From: an uncultured virus (IMG/VR IMGVR_UViG_3300001450_000027) | Lineage: Duplodnaviria; Heunggongvirae; Uroviricota; Caudoviricetes | DNA: 64,000 nucleotides | Virus record (IMG/VR): IMGVR_UViG_3300001450_000027 | Coordinates: 1-64,000 of that record | Strand: one strand, 5' to 3' | Part shown: piece after piece, positions 1 through 34,765 of the stretch | Layout of the letters: the number at the start of each line of letters is the position of its first letter | Position numbering within the stretch: position 1 is the stretch's first letter | The notes under the pieces: generated by a model | Told to the model about the DNA's origin: nothing | Seen by the model: the letters and a program-made list of their open reading frames with translations, nothing else | Databases searched by the model: none | Made by a program: the position numbers and the translations under genes

Positions 1-1179
1 AGCAGTGGCAGCAGCAGCGGCTAAACCAGAAAAAACTTCAACTGATTTGTCTCCGTAAACTGCTAGGGTTTGTAAAGAGGCGTTAAGGCCCTTGGCAAAC
101 TTACTAGCATTTATTCCCATTTGTTTTCCCATCATGGCAACGTTCTTAGTTAACTGGGCTGACTTTTCAGCAGAGTGGCCCATACCTTTTGCGAAAAAGC
201 TCATCAACTGTCCTGAATCTTGTGCAGAAACACCTATTTTAGCCAACTGGGCGGCTGATTGAATCATGACGTCTTTGGTCTTCGCACCCATCGTCATGAA
301 GCCGCCAAAGTTATCAGTCAAGCCTTGGATGGCTTTTCCCACTTGGGCTGTTGAGATTCCGTTTATCCTGTTTGCAGCGGAAAGTCTACCTATGCTTTCT
401 GTTGCTCGATCTCCGTTACCTGTGTACGCTGCCAAGCTTGATGCAGCATTATCTATTTCAGTAAAAAACAGCGTCGTATTGGAAATCATTTTGGAGAATA
501 TGGCAGCGGCTGCGTTTGCGACATTAATCGTTGCTCTAAATGCTTCAACCAGACCCTGCATTCCTTTCGGAGTAGAAGCGATCGCCCCTATTTCTGCCAT
601 TTTTCCAAAAATGGAATTTGCATATCCGTTTGTGGATACTCCCATCATTCTTCCAAGGGCACCAAAGTGCTTTTTACCTGCTGCCAGTCCTTTCTCGTGT
701 AGTGGCCCAAGGGTCCTGTATTGATCTGACAGGGCTTTCATTCTATCAAGCTCTTGCTCTGTAATCTCAATACCTCTTTCGGCTGCAAGGGCTCTTATCG
801 TAGCCGCTTTCTTTTGTTCGCCCCCAAGTTTGCTTGCTGCGTCTGCGCTCATTCCCAATTGTTCTGAGATTCGCTTGATATTTCCCTCGTTATCTTGGTA
901 AGCTTCTTCTTCTAATTTGCTATAGGTCATATATTTATCATGGGCTGCTTTTCTCGCGGCTGCTGAATCGTTATAAAGTCTTGCTAATCTCTCTTCTTGG
1001 TCAGCCAACGCCATAGCATCTTTTATCATTTGCTGGGTCTGTTTGGAGTCAAGGCCTGCCGTATTTAATACATTTGACGAATCACCCCCAAAAGCTTTTT
1101 GGAGCTTTTTATAACCACTGGGGTCGTTTATTTTTAATTCTTCTATTGCTTTTAGCAGTTCCGCAGCAGATATTGCCAT
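1..1179 (-). CDS. Tape measure protein, N-terminal part (runs off the window's left edge)
   Basis: ATG at 1179 (MAISAAELLKAIEELKINDPSGYKKLQKAF...). Absent from the ORF track, consistent with no in-window stop. Ala/Lys/Gln-rich helical sequence, directly after the tail tubes and chaperone. Confidence 0.75.
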   Translation of the reverse strand, partial: MAISAAELLKAIEELKINDPSGYKKLQKAFGGDSSNVLNTAGLDSKQTQQMIKDAMALADQEERLARLYNDSAAARKAAHDKYMTYSKLEEEAYQDNEGNIKRISEQLGMSADAASKLGGEQKKAATIRALAAERGIEITEQELDRMKALSDQYRTLGPLHEKGLAAGKKHFGALGRMMGVSTNGYANSIFGKMAEIGAIASTPKGMQGLVEAFRATINVANAAAAIFSKMISNTTLFFTEIDNAASSLAAYTGNGDRATESIGRLSAANRINGISTAQVGKAIQGLTDNFGGFMTMGAKTKDVMIQSAAQLAKIGVSAQDSGQLMSFFAKGMGHSAEKSAQLTKNVAMMGKQMGINASKFAKGLNASLQTLAVYGDKSVEVFSGLAAAAATA

Positions 1180-1215
1180 TATATAATCCCTCTATCAAAC
1201 ATAAATAGTTTAAAT

Positions 1216-1239
1216 AAAAAAATGCCCTCATTCGAGGGC
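1216..1239 (-). terminator. Intrinsic terminator after the tail chaperone genes
   Basis: mRNA UGCCCUC-GAAU-GAGGGCA followed by a U run. Confidence 0.8.
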
Positions 1240-1243
1240 ACTC

Positions 1244-1437
1244 TTATCTTTTCTTCATTGATTTGTCCATCTGTTCCTTTTCTTCCTTAAAGTGCTTCTG
1301 TAGTCTTTCTGTGAACCAGTTTCTTAGTCCAATCGGGAGGTTATACATCTCAATGAATGACCAGCCACCGAAGTGCTTTAAAATAAAGAATTGTTCGTAA
1401 ACGGATTTTTGGTATTTATCGGTCAGGCCAAAAAAAA
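1244..1437 (-). CDS. Tail assembly chaperone C-terminal extension (T-like / gp51-like ORF), probably expressed by frameshift
   Basis: FFGLTDKYQKSVYEQFFILKHFGGWSFIEMYNLPIGLRNWF. Overlaps the end of the upstream ORF at a T8 run, has no convincing start/SD of its own, and lies directly before the tape measure. Confidence 0.65.
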
Positions 1438-2267
1438 TCCGCGCCAAACGGAACCTCCATTCCTTCTTCGAAACCACACGAAGGACATGTGAACTGATTC
1501 GCAACCTTGACATCAGGGTTGGCGAGTTTATAACAAACTCTCAAGTGCCTTGAGTCTAATGTTGGCATATTGTCAACATACTTGTTAACGATGTTGCGGT
1601 CTGAGTGACCTTCAATCTCAACGATCAGTCGTTTCATTTGATCAGTGAGAACGGATTCTTGTAGTTTGCCTTTTCTCTTATTATTCATAAGTTTAGCAAG
1701 ATACATTTCGTCTTCTCCTTTAAGGAGTTTAAATTTAATTTTAAACTTTGAAAAGGGCATTAAGGTTTGAAATAATCCATCTTCAGCATGGGTCAGATTT
1801 AGATCTTCGCTAACCTCCGTTTGATGTATTTTTTGATCGTTTAAGTCAAATTCAAACTTGCTGCTTTTCTGACAAGAGGGGCAATTTACCTTTGTCTCGT
1901 AATCAGAGCCGTATCCAGAGATACGAGCGGCGATGATAACAGCGTTTCGATCACCAGTAAGCACATCTTTCGGCTTAATATTCTTATCAAGCAAAATACT
2001 TTCAATAAATCGCTCGATAACAATACCCTTTTTGATCAAACTCTGGGACGCTAAAATGTCTTCTTCCTTAGCGGTCATAAACTTGATTTCCACTGTTTCT
2101 TTATTGTGCAGTGGATGGTTTGCAGGGTATCCCTTTCCTTTTGATGGTAAATCAACCATTTCCGTTGGAGCTACAAAGCTCAAAGGGTTGAAGCCACTTT
2201 CTGCCTGTTGCATTATTGGGGCATCGGCAGGTGGCGCCCCAGTTCTATCCATATTATTTCTTGACAA
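1416..2267 (-). CDS. T4 gp26-like baseplate hub / tail assembly chaperone
   Basis: VDLPSKG, MTAKEEDIL, GDRNA..IAARISGYG, two CPSC motifs, ends ..DFFWP. TTG start with GAGGTG SD. Sits between tube and tape measure. Confidence 0.8.
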   Translation of the reverse strand: MSRNNMDRTGAPPADAPIMQQAESGFNPLSFVAPTEMVDLPSKGKGYPANHPLHNKETVEIKFMTAKEEDILASQSLIKKGIVIERFIESILLDKNIKPKDVLTGDRNAVIIAARISGYGSDYETKVNCPSCQKSSKFEFDLNDQKIHQTEVSEDLNLTHAEDGLFQTLMPFSKFKIKFKLLKGEDEMYLAKLMNNKRKGKLQESVLTDQMKRLIVEIEGHSDRNIVNKYVDNMPTLDSRHLRVCYKLANPDVKVANQFTCPSCGFEEGMEVPFGADFFWPDR

Positions 2268-2284
2268 TTTTCACCTCTTTTAAA

Positions 2285-2761
2285 TTATTTAAATTCTGCC
2301 CAATCATAGGCAATAGTCATTGACATCTCAACCAGTTCATCATCACTGTAGCTGAGATCTCCAAAATTAACAGTCTTTATTGTAACATTGTTTAAAATCC
2401 ACTCTTCAATAGTTTTTCCGCTAGCATCCATTTGATAAATCTTTAAATCGCTTTTATCGCCTTTTTTGATTCCGCCAAATCCGCCTGTTGTCGAGCCGGG
2501 GGCACTATACCCCATATCTTCGAGTTTATCATACAATTCTTTAGTTTTTTTGCCAACATCAACAATCGTGAGAGTTACATCATTCCAAGTAAGTATTCCC
2601 GGATACTCAATTGAGTGATTAATAGCAGTGTATCTGTTCGTGGAGATATCAAAGCTTGGTTTGGTAACTGATTTTGCCCACCACAAGACGACACCGCCAA
2701 GTTCAACGAGGAAGCGATGTTTTCGTGTTGGTTCTAAATCGGAAGCACTCCAAAAGGTCAT
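2285..2761 (-). CDS. Tail tube protein, paralog 2 (gp19-like)
   Basis: W..V.LT..D, W.L.N......FGDL.Y..D....I.YDWA pattern; paralogous to the adjacent ORF. Confidence 0.8.
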   Translation of the reverse strand: MTFWSASDLEPTRKHRFLVELGGVVLWWAKSVTKPSFDISTNRYTAINHSIEYPGILTWNDVTLTIVDVGKKTKELYDKLEDMGYSAPGSTTGGFGGIKKGDKSDLKIYQMDASGKTIEEWILNNVTIKTVNFGDLSYSDDELVEMSMTIAYDWAEFK

Positions 2762-2777
2762 TTAAACTCCTATTAAT

Positions 2778-3344
2778 CTATACCCGTTTGAACTGTCTTT
2801 CTGGGGTCCCACTGGCTCCGCCTATTTCGCACTCTGCCCAATCATAACGGATTGCCATTTCTACAGTTCTAAGATCGTCACTTGAGTAATCCAAATCGCC
2901 ATATTTAGCTGATTTAAGAAACGGGTTCCTGAGATACCAAACTTCTATATCCTGACCGTCCGCGTTTACAACATGAATTGACATACTTTTAAAACCAGCA
3001 TTAGTGGCTTTAGCCTTAGATATCGTAGCCTTTTGATTTGCACTCGCGCCATTGCCATTCATAGGGATATTATAACCTGAATCAATTAACAATTTGTTTG
3101 TCAACTGAACAGCATCCGGTGAGATAGGATCAACAAGAGTCAAAGTGACCTCTGACCAACTTACACGTCCGGGATAATAATATTTATTATCAAAAAAATT
3201 GTGTTCGACTTCGGAAACATCATATGATGGAACCGTTACGGTCTTCGCCCACCAAAGAATGTTGTTTCCACCGAAACCATCTAAGATGACCTTCCATCTA
3301 TAATTTCTCTTTGGTTCTACGTCTGCGCTACTCCAAAATGCCAT
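2778..3344 (-). CDS. Tail tube protein, paralog 1 (gp19-like)
   Basis: YYPGRVSWSEVTLTLVDPI, YGDLDYS, IRYDWA; directly downstream of the sheath gene. Confidence 0.85.
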   Translation of the reverse strand: MAFWSSADVEPKRNYRWKVILDGFGGNNILWWAKTVTVPSYDVSEVEHNFFDNKYYYPGRVSWSEVTLTLVDPISPDAVQLTNKLLIDSGYNIPMNGNGASANQKATISKAKATNAGFKSMSIHVVNADGQDIEVWYLRNPFLKSAKYGDLDYSSDDLRTVEMAIRYDWAECEIGGASGTPERQFKRV

Positions 3345-3387
3345 TTTATAATACTCCTATAAATCTTATATAATTAGTTGGCTGTTA

Positions 3388-28648: not shown

Positions 28649-29076
28649 TATTTCTTTCCCATCATTTTGTTAAATATTGTAGAAGATTTGTTTCCAAATA
28701 TATTTGATATATCAACCCCCGGATCTTTTGGGTCTAAACCAGATAATGCCCCCTGATTACCATTTCCAGCAGGAGAAGGCGCAGGAGTTGTACCTTCAAA
28801 AATGTTGATTCCACCGTATGCTTCAGCGCCAATTGCGTCTAAAAGTTTCTTCTTATGCTCTTTGAGAGCGTGATTGACTTTCTTCCGTGAAGTGTATTCC
28901 GGCTGTAGGTTCTTTTCCGGCAGTGATTCTGTTACCACTTGTTTTTTAGTTAAATGTAAGCCGTCAACAACTTCACTTATTATATGTGATAAGGCTCCCT
29001 TTTCTTCGAATACAACTTCTTTTATGCATTCTTTGATTAAAGGCTTTAGTATTTTTTTAATTTCGTTTTTATTCAT
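28648..29076 (-). CDS. Hypothetical head-module protein
   Basis: LKPLIKECIKEV.FEE, FEGT.P, DPGVDIS; coupled to the protease and bS21 genes. Confidence 0.6.
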   Translation of the reverse strand: MNKNEIKKILKPLIKECIKEVVFEEKGALSHIISEVVDGLHLTKKQVVTESLPEKNLQPEYTSRKKVNHALKEHKKKLLDAIGAEAYGGINIFEGTTPAPSPAGNGNQGALSGLDPKDPGVDISNIFGNKSSTIFNKMMGKK

Positions 29077-29699
29077 TAGTCTCTCAAAATTTTGTTAAAC
29101 AAATCATCAATAATTAGATCACTCTTCCGCTTTATTTTGCTTTCGTACATCTTTGGTGACTCACTTTGTTGGTTTTTAGGATACATATAAGCGTCAGGTG
29201 TTGAAGGTTCGGATACAATGTCGAAACAAATTAGTTCAAAATCTTCTTGAACAATGGTGCCTTCACGGCTTTCCTTTACAGAGCCGAGGCCCCGACTTGA
29301 TATACCAAGCTTTATACCAGACTCGACAAGTCCTTTTAGAATATTACCAGATGGTGTATCAAGGATCTTTATCTTACCCATTACATCTTTTCCTTCCCAC
29401 CACATGTCTGTTATAACGTGGGATACGTTTCTGAGGTTGATTATGGAATCATCTGGGTGGTCTAATTCTCCCAAGGCCCTGTTGTCTTTAATAACATTTT
29501 GATAATTTTGCACTTCTTTTCTAAGAACATCGCAAGGATAAATTCTCCCATTACCGTTTTTCATTTCACAGGTTTGCATTCTCCCTGATAGATAAACGGT
29601 ACCATTGGACACTTCTCTCTTTTCTCGCTCAGTTAAAAGATCTTGGCATATACCATCTTTGCAAAGTTCGTAAAATTCTGTTAAAAGTTTTTTAGCCAT
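29076..29699 (-). CDS. Prohead maturation protease (T4 gp21-like)
   Basis: KNGNGRIYP, RALGELDHP, SH, ILDTPSG, LGISSRGLGS, D.VSEPSTPDA. Confidence 0.95.
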   Translation of the reverse strand: MAKKLLTEFYELCKDGICQDLLTEREKREVSNGTVYLSGRMQTCEMKNGNGRIYPCDVLRKEVQNYQNVIKDNRALGELDHPDDSIINLRNVSHVITDMWWEGKDVMGKIKILDTPSGNILKGLVESGIKLGISSRGLGSVKESREGTIVQEDFELICFDIVSEPSTPDAYMYPKNQQSESPKMYESKIKRKSDLIIDDLFNKILRD

Positions 29700-29708
29700 A
29701 GTATTCTC

Positions 29709-30080
29709 CTAATTGCCACGATAATAGGTTTGTGGGCTCAACACCTCTTGCTTTCCATCTGAAAATACGACTTCAATTGTACCACCGTGCATTGGAATAA
29801 TTTGTGTTATTTTTGGCACATCATCACCGATATTCCAGTTCGGGTGAAGTTTATAAAGTTTGCGAACCATTTTCAAGCCAAGGTTCAAATCCATAAACTC
29901 TTTATTTGTCATTCTTGCTAGATTCTCAAGCTTTTGCCAAGGTTCTACGACTACCGGGGGACTCTCGGGGGAGGGAGATACTGGCTGTACCTTGGTTTCG
30001 CCACCGAAAAGGCCTTGTTGATATGCCTCTTTTAATTCTTTTTTAATCATTTCTCTCAATAATTTTGCTGTTAGTTTCAT
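29709..30080 (-). CDS. Hypothetical protein with N-terminal MKLT...IKKEL helix
   Basis: Clean ORF; N-terminal motif shared with other ORFs in the window. Confidence 0.6.
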   Translation of the reverse strand: MKLTAKLLREMIKKELKEAYQQGLFGGETKVQPVSPSPESPPVVVEPWQKLENLARMTNKEFMDLNLGLKMVRKLYKLHPNWNIGDDVPKITQIIPMHGGTIEVVFSDGKQEVLSPQTYYRGN

Positions 30081-30094
30081 TTTGGGGTTCCTTA

Positions 30095-30123
30095 AAAGTA
30101 AAAAGTGGGGGCGCTACCCCCAC
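30095..30123 (-). terminator. Intrinsic terminator
   Basis: GUGGGGG-UAGCG-CCCCCAC then UUUUUACUUUU. Confidence 0.8.
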
Positions 30124-30126
30124 GAG

Positions 30127-30180
30127 TCAGCTTCCGCTACAGCAACGTCTTACTGGTTGAAGCATCCATTTCTTAGTCAT
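30127..30180 (-). CDS. 17-aa peptide MTKKWMLQPVRRCCSGS
   Basis: AGGAG SD upstream of ATG 30180; overlaps the upstream stop; terminator immediately follows. Confidence 0.5.
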   Translation of the reverse strand: MTKKWMLQPVRRCCSGS

Positions 30181-30358
30181 GACCAACTCCTATATGGTTA
30201 ATATTTATGCCTTCATCTTTTACAGTCATTGATAGAAAGTAGGAGGTTCCGGCTGAGATGCATCCGCATATAAACATATTTGCGATTGAATACTCGAAAG
30301 TAAATAGTTCAGTGAAACCATTTATCAAAAATAAGAAACACCCAACCCAAAAACCTAA
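30173..30358 (-). pseudogene. Displaced 3' half of the membrane-protein gene 31168-31473 (still an open frame)
   Basis: ANMFICGCISAGTSYFLSMTVKDEG vs ANMFLMGCLSAGTSYFLSMVVKDDG (20/25 identical); begins LGFWVG at the endonuclease stop. Confidence 0.75.
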
Positions 30359-31122
30359 ACTTTCCAAATTTCATAACGGCATATTTTACCAACGTGGCCC
30401 GTTTGAAGGTTAAATTTTTGTGCTATATCTTTTATTTTCATTTTCTCTTCCTCTCTCAGTCTTCTTATCTCGATGACAGCCTCTTCATTTAGTTTAGACT
30501 TGTTTCTTCTTGTTTCGATACTGGCTTCTGTTATTTTATCGATATGTTGTTTTGTTTTTGGTTTATATTTTTTTCTGGGTGTTTCAGATATTTTCTTTCT
30601 TGTTTCAGCAGAATGCCTCTTGCCATAAAATGGATTTCCTTTCCCAGAATTCCTTTCGGACATTTTCTTCTTTTGTTCTTTTGAGTAAACATACTTATGC
30701 ATGGGATTTCTTTCTCCCATTTTTGATAAAGACATCTTTCTCCTTGTTTCTGAGGAAATCTTTTTGCCCTTGTTGGCCATTGAGACCTTTCTTTTCATTT
30801 CATCCGTGTGTTTTACTCCCAACGAAGAGCCTGCTGTGGGACTAATGTTGTATCCAAATTTTCTATCATATGATTTGAGCCTATCTATATGCCTTTGCTC
30901 TTCAAAAATTAAATCTTTCTTATTTGCTACCACTTGTAGCACTTCAAAAGAAAAGTTATCTTTTCCATACTTGTTCCAAGATCTCTGTAAATGCTCTGAG
31001 TGGTGTTTGTTTTTGTTGAGTTGGTGTTTGTGCCTTGTCCACCGCTTCTTGATGGAAACAGCACTTCCTACATAAACTTTACCATTTAGCAAATTTTTAA
31101 TAATATAAATACCAGACTTCAT
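30355..31122 (-). mobile_element. Free-standing GIY-YIG homing endonuclease with NUMOD3 repeats and C-terminal HTH
   Basis: GIYIIKNLLNGKVYVGS..I.KRW..H, YN, NUMOD3-like KHTDEMKRKVS / NPFYGKRHSAETRKKIS, KLNEEAVIEIR...IAQKFN. Confidence 0.9.
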
Positions 31123-31167
31123 TCTCAAACCCTCACAATAGTAAATAGTCTTTGGTTGGGTTTTTAC

Positions 31168-31473
31168 TCAAGTCTTTTTTATTTGTATTCCATCGTCTTT
31201 AACTACCATAGATAGGAAATAGCTTGTGCCTGCCGACAAGCAACCCATTAAGAACATATTAGCAAAAGTAATTTCATAATTCCAAAGACTCGTGTACGGC
31301 GACAAGAGTACTAACAACCACCCCACATGGAAAGAAACACATAAAGGGCAATGCCACAAAGTATTCCACTTTTTTGTGTAATCTTTCTTGGGTCGAATGT
31401 CTTCAAATATCTTGCCGTATACCAACATAAATGTCATACCGTATGCAGCAAGAATAAAATAGATTAAGTCCAC
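31168..31473 (-). CDS. Small membrane protein with CPxC motif (DUF1360-like)
   Basis: Three hydrophobic segments, IFEDIR, HCPLCVSFHVGW. Confidence 0.65.
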   Translation of the reverse strand: MDLIYFILAAYGMTFMLVYGKIFEDIRPKKDYTKKWNTLWHCPLCVSFHVGWLLVLLSPYTSLWNYEITFANMFLMGCLSAGTSYFLSMVVKDDGIQIKKT

Positions 31474-31481
31474 TTAGTCTC

Positions 31482-32060
31482 CTAATATATGTATCTGCCG
31501 TACATGTAAGGGGCAAACAAGCCATGCTGCTTAATGGAGCCCTTCTCTTCTTCGTGTGGCACTTCGCCAAACTCTGTTGACCTTTCGTCATTCGGGTCTA
31601 GAACGAAATCGTCCATCATATCATCATGGCCTTTGGACGATTTCATGTATGGTCTTTCGCTATCAATCCATTGACTTATTTCGTATAAAGTGGCTTTAAT
31701 ACCGTCAGCTTTTTTAGCCTCATGAATCTTCGCCTCAAGGGAACCATAAACGTTTCCACCTTGTATAGAATCGTAAGCGATAATCCCTGTCTTTTTTAGG
31801 TGGTCAAATAAGCGACTCTCTGCGCCATATACGATTTCTGTCATTAGGTCTTTAGCAAAGGCCACAACTTTTTTCTTTTCAGTCATAACAACGATATCGA
31901 TGTCAGAGTGGTCAAAGATCATAAGATCTCCATTTAACGCTTCCCTCATCATCAATTGAAATTCAAGCATTTGTTTGTTGCTATTTTGTATATTAATTTT
32001 AATCGTTTCTTTCACTTTAATATTAACATCATCAGAGTTTATATTTACCTTAACTGGCAT
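31482..32060 (-). CDS. Hypothetical head-module protein
   Basis: Start MPVKV with GGAGG SD; IQGGNVYGSLEA; in the portal operon. Confidence 0.65.
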   Translation of the reverse strand: MPVKVNINSDDVNIKVKETIKINIQNSNKQMLEFQLMMREALNGDLMIFDHSDIDIVVMTEKKKVVAFAKDLMTEIVYGAESRLFDHLKKTGIIAYDSIQGGNVYGSLEAKIHEAKKADGIKATLYEISQWIDSERPYMKSSKGHDDMMDDFVLDPNDERSTEFGEVPHEEEKGSIKQHGLFAPYMYGRYIY

Positions 32061-32871
32061 TGTTTGATACCTCCGCAACAAGATTCTGAATTAAAAATAC
32101 ATCCTTAACTACTTCTTCTGTAATTGGAGTGTTTTTAAAATTCTCAAGTTTATTCAAAACTTGCTTTGTTTTGGCTAAAAACGCCTCATTTTTTGCTATT
32201 TTTTGCGTTTTGGTACATTCGTGTAGGTTAATCTTAAGACGCGAAATTTCCTCGTTTAAGAACGATTTAAGACCCAAGCCGTTATCAGAGAATGAAATAA
32301 TATAATTCATTAAAAGATCTTTCTGCTCTCTTCTTAGGCTATTGCCATAAGTTTTATTAAATTTATTAGTAAATGTCTTGTATGTGAGGTTGTCGACATG
32401 AGAAAGATCGCGTTTTTCGCTTTTCTCCGTTGACATCGATTGAATCAAGCGGCCTTCAACAAGAATACGATTCTTCGCTTTAAGTTTGGAGTTTAGATAT
32501 GCCCCAATTGATGCCATATCTTTGTAGTTTGAGATAAAATTAGCAAATGCTGTTGGCGACAGTGTCTCGTTAATCTCTTTAATTAATACAGTTTGCTGGT
32601 TGAAGACCATTTTTCTATCAATGTTTTCGAAATCTTTCTTCGTTTCAGCAAGAAGTCGTATCGCGAATTCTTTGCTTACTTTTTTACCCTCAAGAATTGA
32701 TCGGTAAATATCCAAATCTTGCTTAAGGACAGAGTCTTTTTTAAAACTCTCCTTTATAATCTTAATAATGTTTTGCCGCTTTTGTTTGTCCTTGCGAACA
32801 ATTGCTTTTGTGAGTTCTTTAACAAGACATTCATAAAGAAAAGCGGTATTTCTTTTCTTATTGTGCTTCAT
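32050..32871 (-). CDS. Hypothetical helical protein downstream of portal
   Basis: MKHNKKRNTAFLYE, ISNYK..ASI, FNKTY..L..EQK.LL..YI; overlaps the portal stop. Confidence 0.7.
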   Translation of the reverse strand: MKHNKKRNTAFLYECLVKELTKAIVRKDKQKRQNIIKIIKESFKKDSVLKQDLDIYRSILEGKKVSKEFAIRLLAETKKDFENIDRKMVFNQQTVLIKEINETLSPTAFANFISNYKDMASIGAYLNSKLKAKNRILVEGRLIQSMSTEKSEKRDLSHVDNLTYKTFTNKFNKTYGNSLRREQKDLLMNYIISFSDNGLGLKSFLNEEISRLKINLHECTKTQKIAKNEAFLAKTKQVLNKLENFKNTPITEEVVKDVFLIQNLVAEVSNNAS

Positions 32872-34765
32872 GATCTTTTTTCTCCGTTTTTATAAGGCCT
32901 TCTAAAAGTTTATCAATTTCATACTTTGTATTAAATAGTTTGTTTTCTTCAACTTTGTGTGATTCCGTAATACCTTTTGATAATTGTCTAAGCTCTGTAG
33001 AGCCCATGGGCAAAGCAGTCCTTGCTGTGTTGCCGTATTCTCCGGTGGCTTGGTTTTTGAAATTCTTCTTTCTGCCGCCTTTATTATAATTCATCTGGTG
33101 TCTTTTATACTTGCCTCGTTTATATTGAGAGCCGTCATCTCTCTTGGCTGGTGGCTCTGCTAATAAAACATCGTCTTCTTCATCGCCACCGGCTGGTTCT
33201 GCGTCTCCTTCGCCGCCCAAGTCAAGGTCACCACCAAGGTCATCTCCACCAAGGTCACCACCAAGATCACCACCTAGGTCTCCACCCAGACCACCACCTT
33301 CTCCTTGTCCTTCTCCGCCTTGAAGTTGTGTTGCGAATTTCATATCATGAAACATCTCTCTTTGATTTCTGATGAATTCATCTTCTGATATACCAAGCAT
33401 GTGCTCTGCCACCCAACGTTTAGAAAAATAACCTTCTGTTGCTGCGCTCGCAGCTTCAAACTTGCTTTTCCAGTGCTCAAGCTCTTGCAGTTCAGCAATC
33501 TTAGAAGGGTTGTTGAGATGAAGAGAGAATGAAAGAAGGTCATCCCCCCTGAACCCAAGAGTGAATAGATGTATAATACCAATCTTTTCAAGCTCCGATA
33601 TAATAACACGCTGTAGACGTTGAATGGTTCTTGAAAAGCGAATATCTTTCTGTGCAAGGGTCGTCTTATCCTCCATGGCACCCTCACCCATTGTAAGGTA
33701 AGCTTGCGGAATTTTAATCGCAGCAAAAAGCTTGTCTTTGAGATATTTAACATCTTCTACTGTTCCCGTGAATTGTCCACCGGGCAAATTAGTGATCTCA
33801 GACGCAGATCCACCGCGAACAGGAATAAAATAATCCTCTTCTATTGATAGTGGGTTGTAGCGAAGATCAACACGACCAGTACTAGGATCGACAACTTGGT
33901 GACGCTTCATCTGGGTCATGACTTTCTGCATATACTGCTCTACATCTTGAGGGGCTATATTGCCAACATCAATTTTAAATACTCTCCTTTCTGGTGACCT
34001 GACGATACGATAGGCCATCATTGCGTCCTCAAGAAGGGTGAGTTGTCTCCAAATACGACGAGCCGGCTCAAGCACAGAGGTTCCATAAGGAACGTTTTTA
34101 TCGTTCCCTAACACTCTAAAGTGAGCAACCTGCCAATTCTCAAGCGTGAGACCAGCAGAGTTCCATTGGTATTGAACGTAATTCGGATTACTTTCGTCTT
34201 CCCCCTCAAGTCTTTCGACTTCTTGAGGGGGCAGCCCAATACAGTTTCTAATCCCAGCGTCTTCATCCATATCTAAATAAAGAAAGAGGTCACCGTATTT
34301 ACACATAGTTCGAGACCAACCAAATAAATTGTGGTTGATGTTAAGAACATTAAAATACAAGGATTCAAGAACTGACTTGATTTCATCATTTGCACACTTG
34401 ATTTGCAACATTGGGTTCAAACTTGAGTGGGTCGTCATCTCGTCTGCGTAAATATCTAATGCCGAAGCAATGATAGGTTCGTATTCCATTTGATCAAAGT
34501 CGACATAACGCTCAGATCGGTTTCTGTTGGAAATCATATTGACCGCCATAACGTTCATGGGGTTGTATTCAGTCTTTTTAAATTGTTTACCGGAGGCTGA
34601 CTTAAATCGATTAGCATATATATCGAGATGTCTTCTCCGAATCTCCCTACCCGTCTGAGTTCTGCGATTGACTATTGGTCCAGAAAACAGTCTTGTAAGT
34701 GACTTGAACAGCTTGTTCGTTTCATTATAGGGGTTATTCCCTTTTCTTCCATATTTTTTAGCCAT
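32858..34765 (-). CDS. Portal protein (T4 gp20-like)
   Basis: ALDIYADE, LEDAMMAYRIVRSPERRVFKIDVGN, EDYFIPVRGG, EITNLPGG, KIP. Confidence 0.97.
   Translation of the reverse strand: MAKKYGRKGNNPYNETNKLFKSLTRLFSGPIVNRRTQTGREIRRRHLDIYANRFKSASGKQFKKTEYNPMNVMAVNMISNRNRSERYVDFDQMEYEPIIASALDIYADEMTTHSSLNPMLQIKCANDEIKSVLESLYFNVLNINHNLFGWSRTMCKYGDLFLYLDMDEDAGIRNCIGLPPQEVERLEGEDESNPNYVQYQWNSAGLTLENWQVAHFRVLGNDKNVPYGTSVLEPARRIWRQLTLLEDAMMAYRIVRSPERRVFKIDVGNIAPQDVEQYMQKVMTQMKRHQVVDPSTGRVDLRYNPLSIEEDYFIPVRGGSASEITNLPGGQFTGTVEDVKYLKDKLFAAIKIPQAYLTMGEGAMEDKTTLAQKDIRFSRTIQRLQRVIISELEKIGIIHLFTLGFRGDDLLSFSLHLNNPSKIAELQELEHWKSKFEAASAATEGYFSKRWVAEHMLGISEDEFIRNQREMFHDMKFATQLQGGEGQGEGGGLGGDLGGDLGGDLGGDDLGGDLDLGGEGDAEPAGGDEEDDVLLAEPPAKRDDGSQYKRGKYKRHQMNYNKGGRKKNFKNQATGEYGNTARTALPMGSTELRQLSKGITESHKVEENKLFNTKYEIDKLLEGLIKTEKKDHEAQ
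33213..33300 (-). repeat. GGDL low-complexity repeat in the portal C-terminal tail
   Basis: GGGLGGDLGGDLGGDLGGDDLGGDLDLGG; imperfect 12-bp period. Confidence 0.8.

Follow-up and report, generated by a model that had tools for sequence, protein, structure and literature searches.

A probable gene-end-replacing cassette of an I-TevI-like homing endonuclease in a membrane gene of a marine phage

How can a homing endonuclease enter a coding sequence, with neither an intron nor an intein around it, and still leave the invaded gene complete? This question is raised by a locus on the minus strand of a 64,000-nucleotide (nt) stretch of DNA from an uncultured virus (positions 1 to 64,000 of the 72.8-kb IMG/VR record IMGVR_UViG_3300001450_000027), which we call the window and whose coordinates are used throughout unless another locus is named. 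Here, the gene of a free-standing endonuclease of the GIY-YIG type lies between an intact gene for a small membrane protein and a second, orphaned copy of the 3' half of that gene. To our knowledge, the accepted ways into genes for phage homing endonucleases all require help, from an intron or intein, an intergenic position, or a rare tolerated split of the gene. An initial annotation, made from the sequence alone and with no database searches, had read the locus as a homing endonuclease that carries a replacement 3' half with it, and our analysis largely supports this reading. We consider it likely, with good confidence, that the locus is a gene-end-replacing homing cassette of an I-TevI-like free-standing endonuclease inside the membrane gene. 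It would then represent a further route open to phage endonucleases, in which the element mends the gene that it interrupts by delivering a foreign half-gene.

An endonuclease between two versions of a gene end

The layout observed earlier, an intact gene followed by a GIY-YIG gene and an orphaned half-gene, is confirmed by our reading of the minus strand, on which the membrane gene is followed by a 45-nt spacer, the endonuclease gene, and the orphan 3' half (Table 1). In Pfam, the middle gene matches GIY-YIG (PF01541, E 3.4e-10) and NUMOD3 (E 3.2e-18, in two stretches), with a C-terminal match to the helix-turn-helix (HTH) family HTH_7 that stays below threshold (E 0.0084, 16.7 versus 23.8 bits), and PHROG homing-endonuclease families match it as well. 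The I-TevI catalytic domain (PDB 1mk0/1ln0) is matched along its whole length by residues 1-95 of its product (E 4e-18), an alignment that contains each of the positions taken to be catalytic, namely GIY, YVG, Arg, Glu, and Asn (GYN). Judged by its sequence, the endonuclease looks intact, and no second copy is present in the 72.8-kb record. It shares with I-TevI, which belongs to the T4 td intron, both an alignable catalytic domain and the NUMOD3 linker repeats, but unlike I-TevI it is not intron-encoded.

Translation of the endonuclease likely begins at the ATG at 31122, with GAGGG 7 nt upstream, in preference to a TTG at 31128. The spacer contains this ribosome-binding site, and the gene is probably co-transcribed with the membrane gene. 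The promoter-like motif placed at 31142 by the initial annotation was not borne out, as a sigma-70 scan gave four sites against 4.7 expected by chance, none of them in the spacer, which does not contain the T4 late-promoter motif TATAAATA either. Of the mobile unit proposed at that time, comprising a new 3' half, a promoter, and the endonuclease, the half and the endonuclease stand, whereas the promoter is not supported.

The carried half, which is in frame with the 5' half of the membrane gene, and the orphan are identical at 30/55 amino acids (aa) by BLASTP (E 1e-20) and at 20/25 residues of a core, the count given initially. As had also been seen, the synonymous sites differ: the two halves agree at 93/165 DNA positions (56%), and their synonymous sites are saturated (pS 0.81), which points to an old divergence and not to a recent tandem duplication. 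A scan of IMG/VR with the 101-aa membrane protein gave 127 relatives, the best 80 of which were kept, one being the window's own phage. None of the 79 other loci among these carries an endonuclease at the membrane-gene site, and the 78 alleles translated from them, on which all empty-allele counts rest, consist in every case (78/78) of a single gene reading CPxC-x-GF(W/H) and not of two paralogues, as predicted.

Comparison with these empty alleles identifies the half now in frame as the foreign one. The 5' half of the window is identical at 44/44 aa to the empty alleles L002 and L003, whereas its in-frame 3' half agrees with that of L002, the best 5' neighbor, at only 29/52 aa. The orphan differs from the 3' half of L003 by one amino acid and matches it at 170/183 nt (93%), with 12 synonymous changes and one non-synonymous change, and its distinctive C-terminal tail is also found in L003-type 3' halves. 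The empty allele L003 can therefore be read as the 5' half of the window joined to a near-identical orphan, which makes the orphan the resident half. DNA similarity to five empty alleles ends after the Cys45 codon and resumes at 30360. A tree built from the 3' halves (63 rows, 52 columns) places the carried half of the window in a clade with those of L124, P0002, P0003, and P0004 (support 96/85), and its orphan nests among L002, L003, L008, L011, and L029 (97/91); the orphan of L124, a second occupied allele described below, nests with L046/L047-type empties (100/99). Such disagreement between the phylogenies of the halves had been foreseen.

The residue two positions after CPxC is Gly in 78/78 empties and Ser in 4/4 chimeric alleles. 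P0004, although its 3' half falls in the carried clade, has Gly and an ...IQIKT tail. The initial annotation had contrasted SFH in the carried copy with GFW, and this holds for the first letter, the change from Gly to Ser being special to carried halves, but not for the last, as GFH is a natural variant present in 19/78 empty alleles. The exchange of Gly for Ser is a candidate self-immunity change.

Might the orphan still be in use, as one of two tandem partial paralogues, as part of a gene in pieces, or after an intron- or intein-like removal that rejoins it to the 5' half? We hold this to be highly improbable. The orphan frame is intact, with almost only synonymous changes relative to L003, but this also fits a recent insertion, and no empty relative has more than the one gene. 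A stop closes the carried half, and the orphan frame, which opens within the final endonuclease codons and runs to 30173, is a different one from that of the endonuclease, with no convincing start codon or ribosome-binding site in its sequence; the orphan is predicted to be untranslated. A few short contigs from the RNA run X17 match 30117-30267, where identity is 100%, and 30373-30523, two of them being 100% identical, but they come from an oligo-dT library with possible DNA carry-over and so are no evidence for transcription or for the absence of splicing. An Rfam search over 29000-32500 gave no match at E<=1, in support of the initial claim of entry without splicing, and the insert starts with gene-homologous coding sequence, not with intron structure. 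A group I intron or an intein was also considered as a candidate in its own right and rejected on the Rfam result, the stop of the carried half, and the separate open reading frame (ORF) of the endonuclease.

Movement of the cassette between phage genomes

The second occupied allele, L124, came from a single metagenome scan and is not among the 79 IMG/VR loci. Its 5' half agrees at 44/44 aa with another clade of empties (L047), the 3' half in frame with it belongs to the carried type (...MSFHVGW...IQIKKT), and downstream lies a copy of the last 120 codons of the endonuclease with 86% nt identity, ~449 nt equivalent to the spacer and the catalytic domain being deleted. The right junction is the same as that of the window to within 1 nt, and an orphan of the L046/L047 type then follows. 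Two more 101-aa proteins of different origin, P0002 and P0003, have a carried-type half on other 5' halves, with 41/44 identity to L046 for P0002 and ~39/44 to L037 or L073 for P0003. The cassette moves as a unit, and its presence or absence is polymorphic at a single fixed site in no fewer than two phage backgrounds. Between the two cassettes, dN/dS is 0.27 for the carried halves (43/168 nt differ) and 0.27 for the 3' parts of the endonuclease (50/360 nt), and the carried halves, and with them the chimeric gene, appear to be under purifying selection.

Occupied and empty forms also coexist in seawater. Logan contigs of four other marine runs were compared with 29700-31900, the uncovered parts in runs X2-X4 being uninformative. 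A 1,740-nt contig from run X4 (record 23) is a near-isogenic empty allele, with 14 differences from the window on each side (over 661 and 540 nt, ~97.5% alike). It skips 1,000 nt between 30360 and 31361 and has 20 other letters in place of 31341..31360, which complete the codons ...L-W-Y-C-P-L-C in frame with L-G-F-W; these differing letters mark the last 20-22 nt of the window before the junction as donor-type. Run X2 contains an occupied 1,122-nt contig over both junctions (26 differences) together with a 198-nt contig of the empty form from a more distant relative, so that both forms occur in one run, and run X3 contains an occupied 942-nt contig. At 30360, the minus strand has G in the window and T in L124 and the occupied X2 and X3 contigs, and this difference among occupied forms assigns the base to the element. 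In the junction alignment, the last codon and stop of the endonuclease (GTT TAG, 30360..30355) overlap the resident target sequence. Different studies, with samples from 2017 and from 2024, contain the occupied form, and empty forms occur beside it. In IMG/VR, the precise junction string of the carried half is confined to the window's own phage.

Co-conversion tracts flank the insertion. Upstream, L124 and the empty L047 share 99.4% identity across 2,265 nt. Left of the junction there are four single-nucleotide polymorphisms (SNPs) within 47 nt, and at the three closest to it (-4, -7, -16) L124 has the same letters as the tract in the window. Right of the junction, five SNPs within 46 nt are followed by 77 identical nt. 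Short tracts on both sides of an insertion are the expected residue of double-strand-break repair at the site, and those of the L124/L047 pair are best read as co-conversion. Together with the X4 contig, they refine the initial statement that the unit is inserted right after CPLC, since the junction does lie there but donor DNA begins ~20-22 nt upstream. The cassette, about 1 kb in size, is made up of ~22 nt of donor sequence, the foreign 3' half with its stop, the 45-nt spacer, and the endonuclease gene.

We propose that, during a mixed infection, the enzyme would cut the unoccupied allele near the ...CPLC|xGFW... codons and the break would be repaired from the occupied genome. Homology for this repair would come from the conserved 5' half on the left and from the orphan 3' half on the right. 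With only 56% DNA identity to the resident half, the carried one would be too diverged to recombine with it, so the whole cassette would be copied. This would yield a complete, if chimeric, gene of resident 5' half and carried 3' half. Behind it, the resident 3' half would remain as an orphan that is not translated, and the target site would be split in two. I-TevI cuts 23-25 nt upstream of its own insertion site, and by analogy the obligatory donor tract of ~22 nt may place the cut here some 20-25 nt before the junction.

Another conceivable origin is a single illegitimate duplication or insertion that was then inherited vertically, with the empty alleles arising by later precise loss. The original composite must indeed have needed one non-homologous joint, and the fixed right junction, with an endonuclease stop codon supplied by the target sequence, would suit such an event. 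The same cassette and junction are, however, found beside two resident 5' halves and two orphans, each nesting with its own empties, and all of the translated IMG/VR alleles are empty. Precise loss that restored the gene in many lineages would be far less parsimonious than gain, and we give vertical inheritance very little chance of being the explanation.

That the locus is a real mobile cassette is well supported, and the catalytic step is its more conditional part. A number of points weigh against our reading. We infer, rather than observe, that the window's enzyme makes the break, where it would cut, and that the occupied allele would be immune. The only potentially active copy appears to be of the window's type, as the L124 copy is without a catalytic domain, and with L124 and the X2 and X3 contigs set aside, the nearest relative of the endonuclease is only 43% identical, this also being the best in IMG/VR, where no close relative was found. 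We found no donor genome in which the carried half is native and has the endonuclease beside it, and P0002 and P0003 enter the comparison as proteins. The few non-synonymous changes in the orphan leave room for some residual function, and the insertion parts a conserved micro-ORF (see below) from the translated gene, which is a possible cost.

General recombination between co-infecting phages could also move the cassette with no targeted break. In this alternative, the cassette is real and exchanged horizontally, but it moves only by ordinary homologous recombination, and its passenger endonuclease is either inactive or cuts at some other place. According to passages of Barth et al. (2023, PMC10448857), recombination is frequent among phages and mosaic boundaries are often met near nuclease genes, and the L124 cassette persists although its endonuclease copy is catalytically dead. 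Cleavage by the window's enzyme is, as stated, something that we infer, but that enzyme has a complete I-TevI-like catalytic domain, the short SNP tracts hug both sides of the insertion in a 99.4%-identical pair as break repair would leave them, and the invariant Gly beside the junction is replaced in 4/4 chimeric alleles. We regard a mere passenger as unlikely, with a small but real chance of being correct.

The evidence comes from natural populations: empty and occupied genomes that are near-isogenic, tracts of co-conversion, a copy that has degenerated, and detection in samples from both 2017 and 2024. If the homing cassette is what we take it to be, the endonuclease would be a vehicle of sub-genic exchange, with chimeric proteins made in one step. 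The orphan fragments left behind would be misread by annotation pipelines as small ORFs or paralogues. The locus also offers a defined and easily synthesized pair of target and enzyme for studying how such a cassette originates and how it avoids self-cleavage.

Known systems and related loci

The closest analogue is the C-terminal replacement by mORFs of fungal mitochondria, to which the initial annotation had rightly pointed. An Allomyces atp6 case is reportedly due to Paquin et al. 1994. Passages on the mORFs of Glomus (Beaudet et al. 2013, PMC3630166) describe, for atp6, atp9, cox2, and nad3, a foreign C-terminus that precedes the endonuclease ORF, with the native C-terminus downstream and closer to relatives (91% versus 64% nt identity for atp6), and passages on Endoconidiophora describe partial C-terminal duplications of atp6 and cob flanked by endonuclease genes (PMC6279837). 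In both the mORFs and the window, the endonuclease ORF lies inside a coding gene, a foreign in-frame C-terminal segment before it completes the gene, and the native segment is kept downstream, nearer to endonuclease-free relatives (93% versus 56% in the window). As far as these passages go, the systems differ in that the host of the window's cassette is a bacteriophage and not an organelle, and in that its enzyme is of the I-TevI-like GIY-YIG/NUMOD3 type with its own ribosome-binding site and no fusion to the host gene, whereas those of Glomus are mostly LAGLIDADG. Unlike the mORF cases, the window's locus can be compared between near-isogenic genomes with and without the insertion, in which co-conversion tracts are mapped.

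Described phage routes into coding regions include introns, inteins, intergenic intronless homing, the split nrdA of Aeh1, and mobA/gene 60. Intronless homing is reportedly carried out by T4 SegF, SegG, SegE, and MobE, in work attributed to Belle et al. 2002. These resemble the window's enzyme as free-standing endonucleases of T4-like phages, presumed to cut a neighboring endonuclease-free allele that is then repaired from the occupied genome with flanking co-conversion, but they are intergenic and have no duplicated gene fragment, whereas the window's cassette lies inside a coding sequence with a replacement half. The T4 mobA/gene 60 cassette is an instance of a phage endonuclease in a coding region. 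In Aeromonas phage Aeh1, according to passages of Crona et al. (2010, PMC3045599), nrdA is split by mobE into "genes in pieces". As in both of these, the endonuclease of the window lies within a coding region with no RNA or protein splicing, and extra sequence rescues the host gene. The Aeh1 gene, by that account, stays split and its polypeptides reassemble via tails, whereas the window's gene is made whole and the old half discarded. Full-text literature searches for an end-replacement case in phages, with subscription-only literature outside their scope, gave mitochondrial or unrelated papers only, and end replacement is not described in the passages available from Barth et al. (PMC10448857) or from the Rephine.r paper (PMC8351571). 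As far as these searches show, the mechanism is known from fungal mitochondria and has so far not been found described in phages.

We also screened loci with relatives of the endonuclease for protein similarity between their upstream and downstream flanks. The screen covered 105 loci, representing 69 distinct genes, and 14 further loci were skipped for short flanks. Duplications were present at 4/69 distinct loci, namely the window's phage, L103/L191, L082/L125, and L116, and the screen undercounts, given that it missed the known positive L124. L103 (640..3431, on the same contig as L191) has a 600-aa helicase-like gene, a related GIY-YIG gene (2495..3349), and then a diverged second copy of the last ~30 codons of the helicase, a 3'-replacement layout like that of the window. 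The 79 relatives of this helicase are only 55-75% identical, the orphan tail scored higher in 8/79 of them, and neither tail is clearly the resident one.

At L082 (2404..4325, on the same contig as L125), a radical-SAM-like gene has its first ~30 codons duplicated ahead of a related endonuclease. L281 is an endonuclease-free, single-gene allele of the same gene, and this sole relative is, at 76%, too diverged for polarity. In L116 (2399..5621), the first ~20 codons of a large structural gene form an in-frame fusion with the endonuclease and recur downstream of it, and no relatives at all were found. From their arrangement, L082 and L116 would be mirror-image cases that involve the 5' end. Gene-end replacement, at the 3' end or in mirror image at the 5' end, may be a general and hitherto unrecognized phage route by which I-TevI-like free-standing endonucleases enter coding sequences, a tentative generalization to which we assign a chance somewhat short of even. 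If it is true, an element of this kind would need neither intron nor intein, and it would drive phages to exchange protein termini horizontally. Ahead of the L082 cassette there is also a 400-aa ORF (711..1913), whose product resembles a TnpB/IS605 OrfB-type protein and would have a zinc ribbon at its C-terminus.

Genome setting and the host gene

Table 1. Features of the occupied locus, in coordinates of the 64-kb window
Feature	Position	Strand	Remarks
Membrane gene, intact, 101 aa, hydrophobic	31473..31168	-	Reads ...WHCPLC-VSFHVGW...SAGTSYFLSM...stop
Resident 5' part of the membrane gene, codons 1 to ~38	31361..31473	-	GTG start at 31473; 44/44 aa identical to L002 and L003; X4 contig matches up to 31361
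Co-conversion tract, donor-derived	31339..31360	-	Codons ..LWHCPLC, the last being Cys45 TGT (31341..31339)
Carried (foreign) 3' half, V46..T101 and stop TGA	31168..31338	-	In frame with the resident 5' half
Spacer, 45 nt	31123..31167	-	Shine-Dalgarno-like GAGGG at 31134..31130
Gene of free-standing I-TevI-like homing endonuclease, 255 aa	30355..31122	-	GIY-YIG, NUMOD3 repeats, weak C-terminal HTH
Right junction	30359..30360	-	30360 is the final base of the element; resident sequence from 30359 on
Orphan resident 3' half, L46..D106 and stop	30173..30358	-	Open frame LGFWVGC...SAGTSYFLSM
Micro-ORF, 17 aa (MTKKWMLQPVRRCCSGS)	30127..30180	-	Start overlaps the stop of the resident gene, now that of the orphan
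Terminator-like GC-rich hairpin and T run	30105..30123	-	Closes the unit

The source is an uncultured marine T4-like phage, and the locus lies in its head-morphogenesis module. On the minus strand, Pfam identifies a T4-like head module with a portal (Portal_T4, E 3e-79) and a prohead protease (Peptidase_S77, E 4e-35), between which lie a 273-aa gene, a 199-aa gene (32081..31482), the membrane gene, and then the endonuclease segment. Past the orphan, the micro-ORF, the hairpin terminator, and a 123-aa gene follow in that order. In the INPHARED phage collection, no match was found by blastn of 29000-33000 or tblastn of the membrane protein.

The membrane protein has three hydrophobic segments and no family in Pfam or PHROGs at default thresholds. 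Matches to DUF1360 (PF07098) over the CPxC region stay below threshold in 4/6 alleles (14-17 bits versus 21, E 0.005-0.047), and the chimeric protein of the window has no PF07098 match in Pfam. Language-model neighbors are DUF1360-annotated clusters (score 0.94), and the host gene is at best a distant DUF1360-like three-helix membrane protein.

The micro-ORF that follows the gene ends in ...W(M/V)LQPVRRCCSGS and is present, at 17-20 aa and with synonymous codon changes, in 73/76 evaluable related loci, where the initial annotation had expected an LQPVRRCC peptide after the empty gene. Its start overlaps the membrane-gene stop, mostly by -14 or -8 nt, and this overlap suggests that the two are translationally coupled. 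In the occupied allele, the micro-ORF adjoins the orphan half and would be coupled to this untranslated sequence instead.

The spacing between the homologue of the 199-aa gene and the membrane gene ranges from ~10 nt to >2 kb among L002-L080, which indicates an insertion hotspot upstream of the membrane gene. A 150-aa gene in this hotspot of L124 (2253..2705) is without a counterpart in the 99.4%-identical L047. In the same variable region, L054 has a GIY-YIG endonuclease gene (1902..2627) that is 38% identical and lies upstream of the membrane gene; the flank-duplication screen gave nothing for it. Elsewhere in the head module, the portal gene (34765..32858, minus strand) encodes a Gly/Asp-rich repeat, GGDLGGDLGGDL..., near its C-terminus (33160..33320), outside the Portal_T4 domain.

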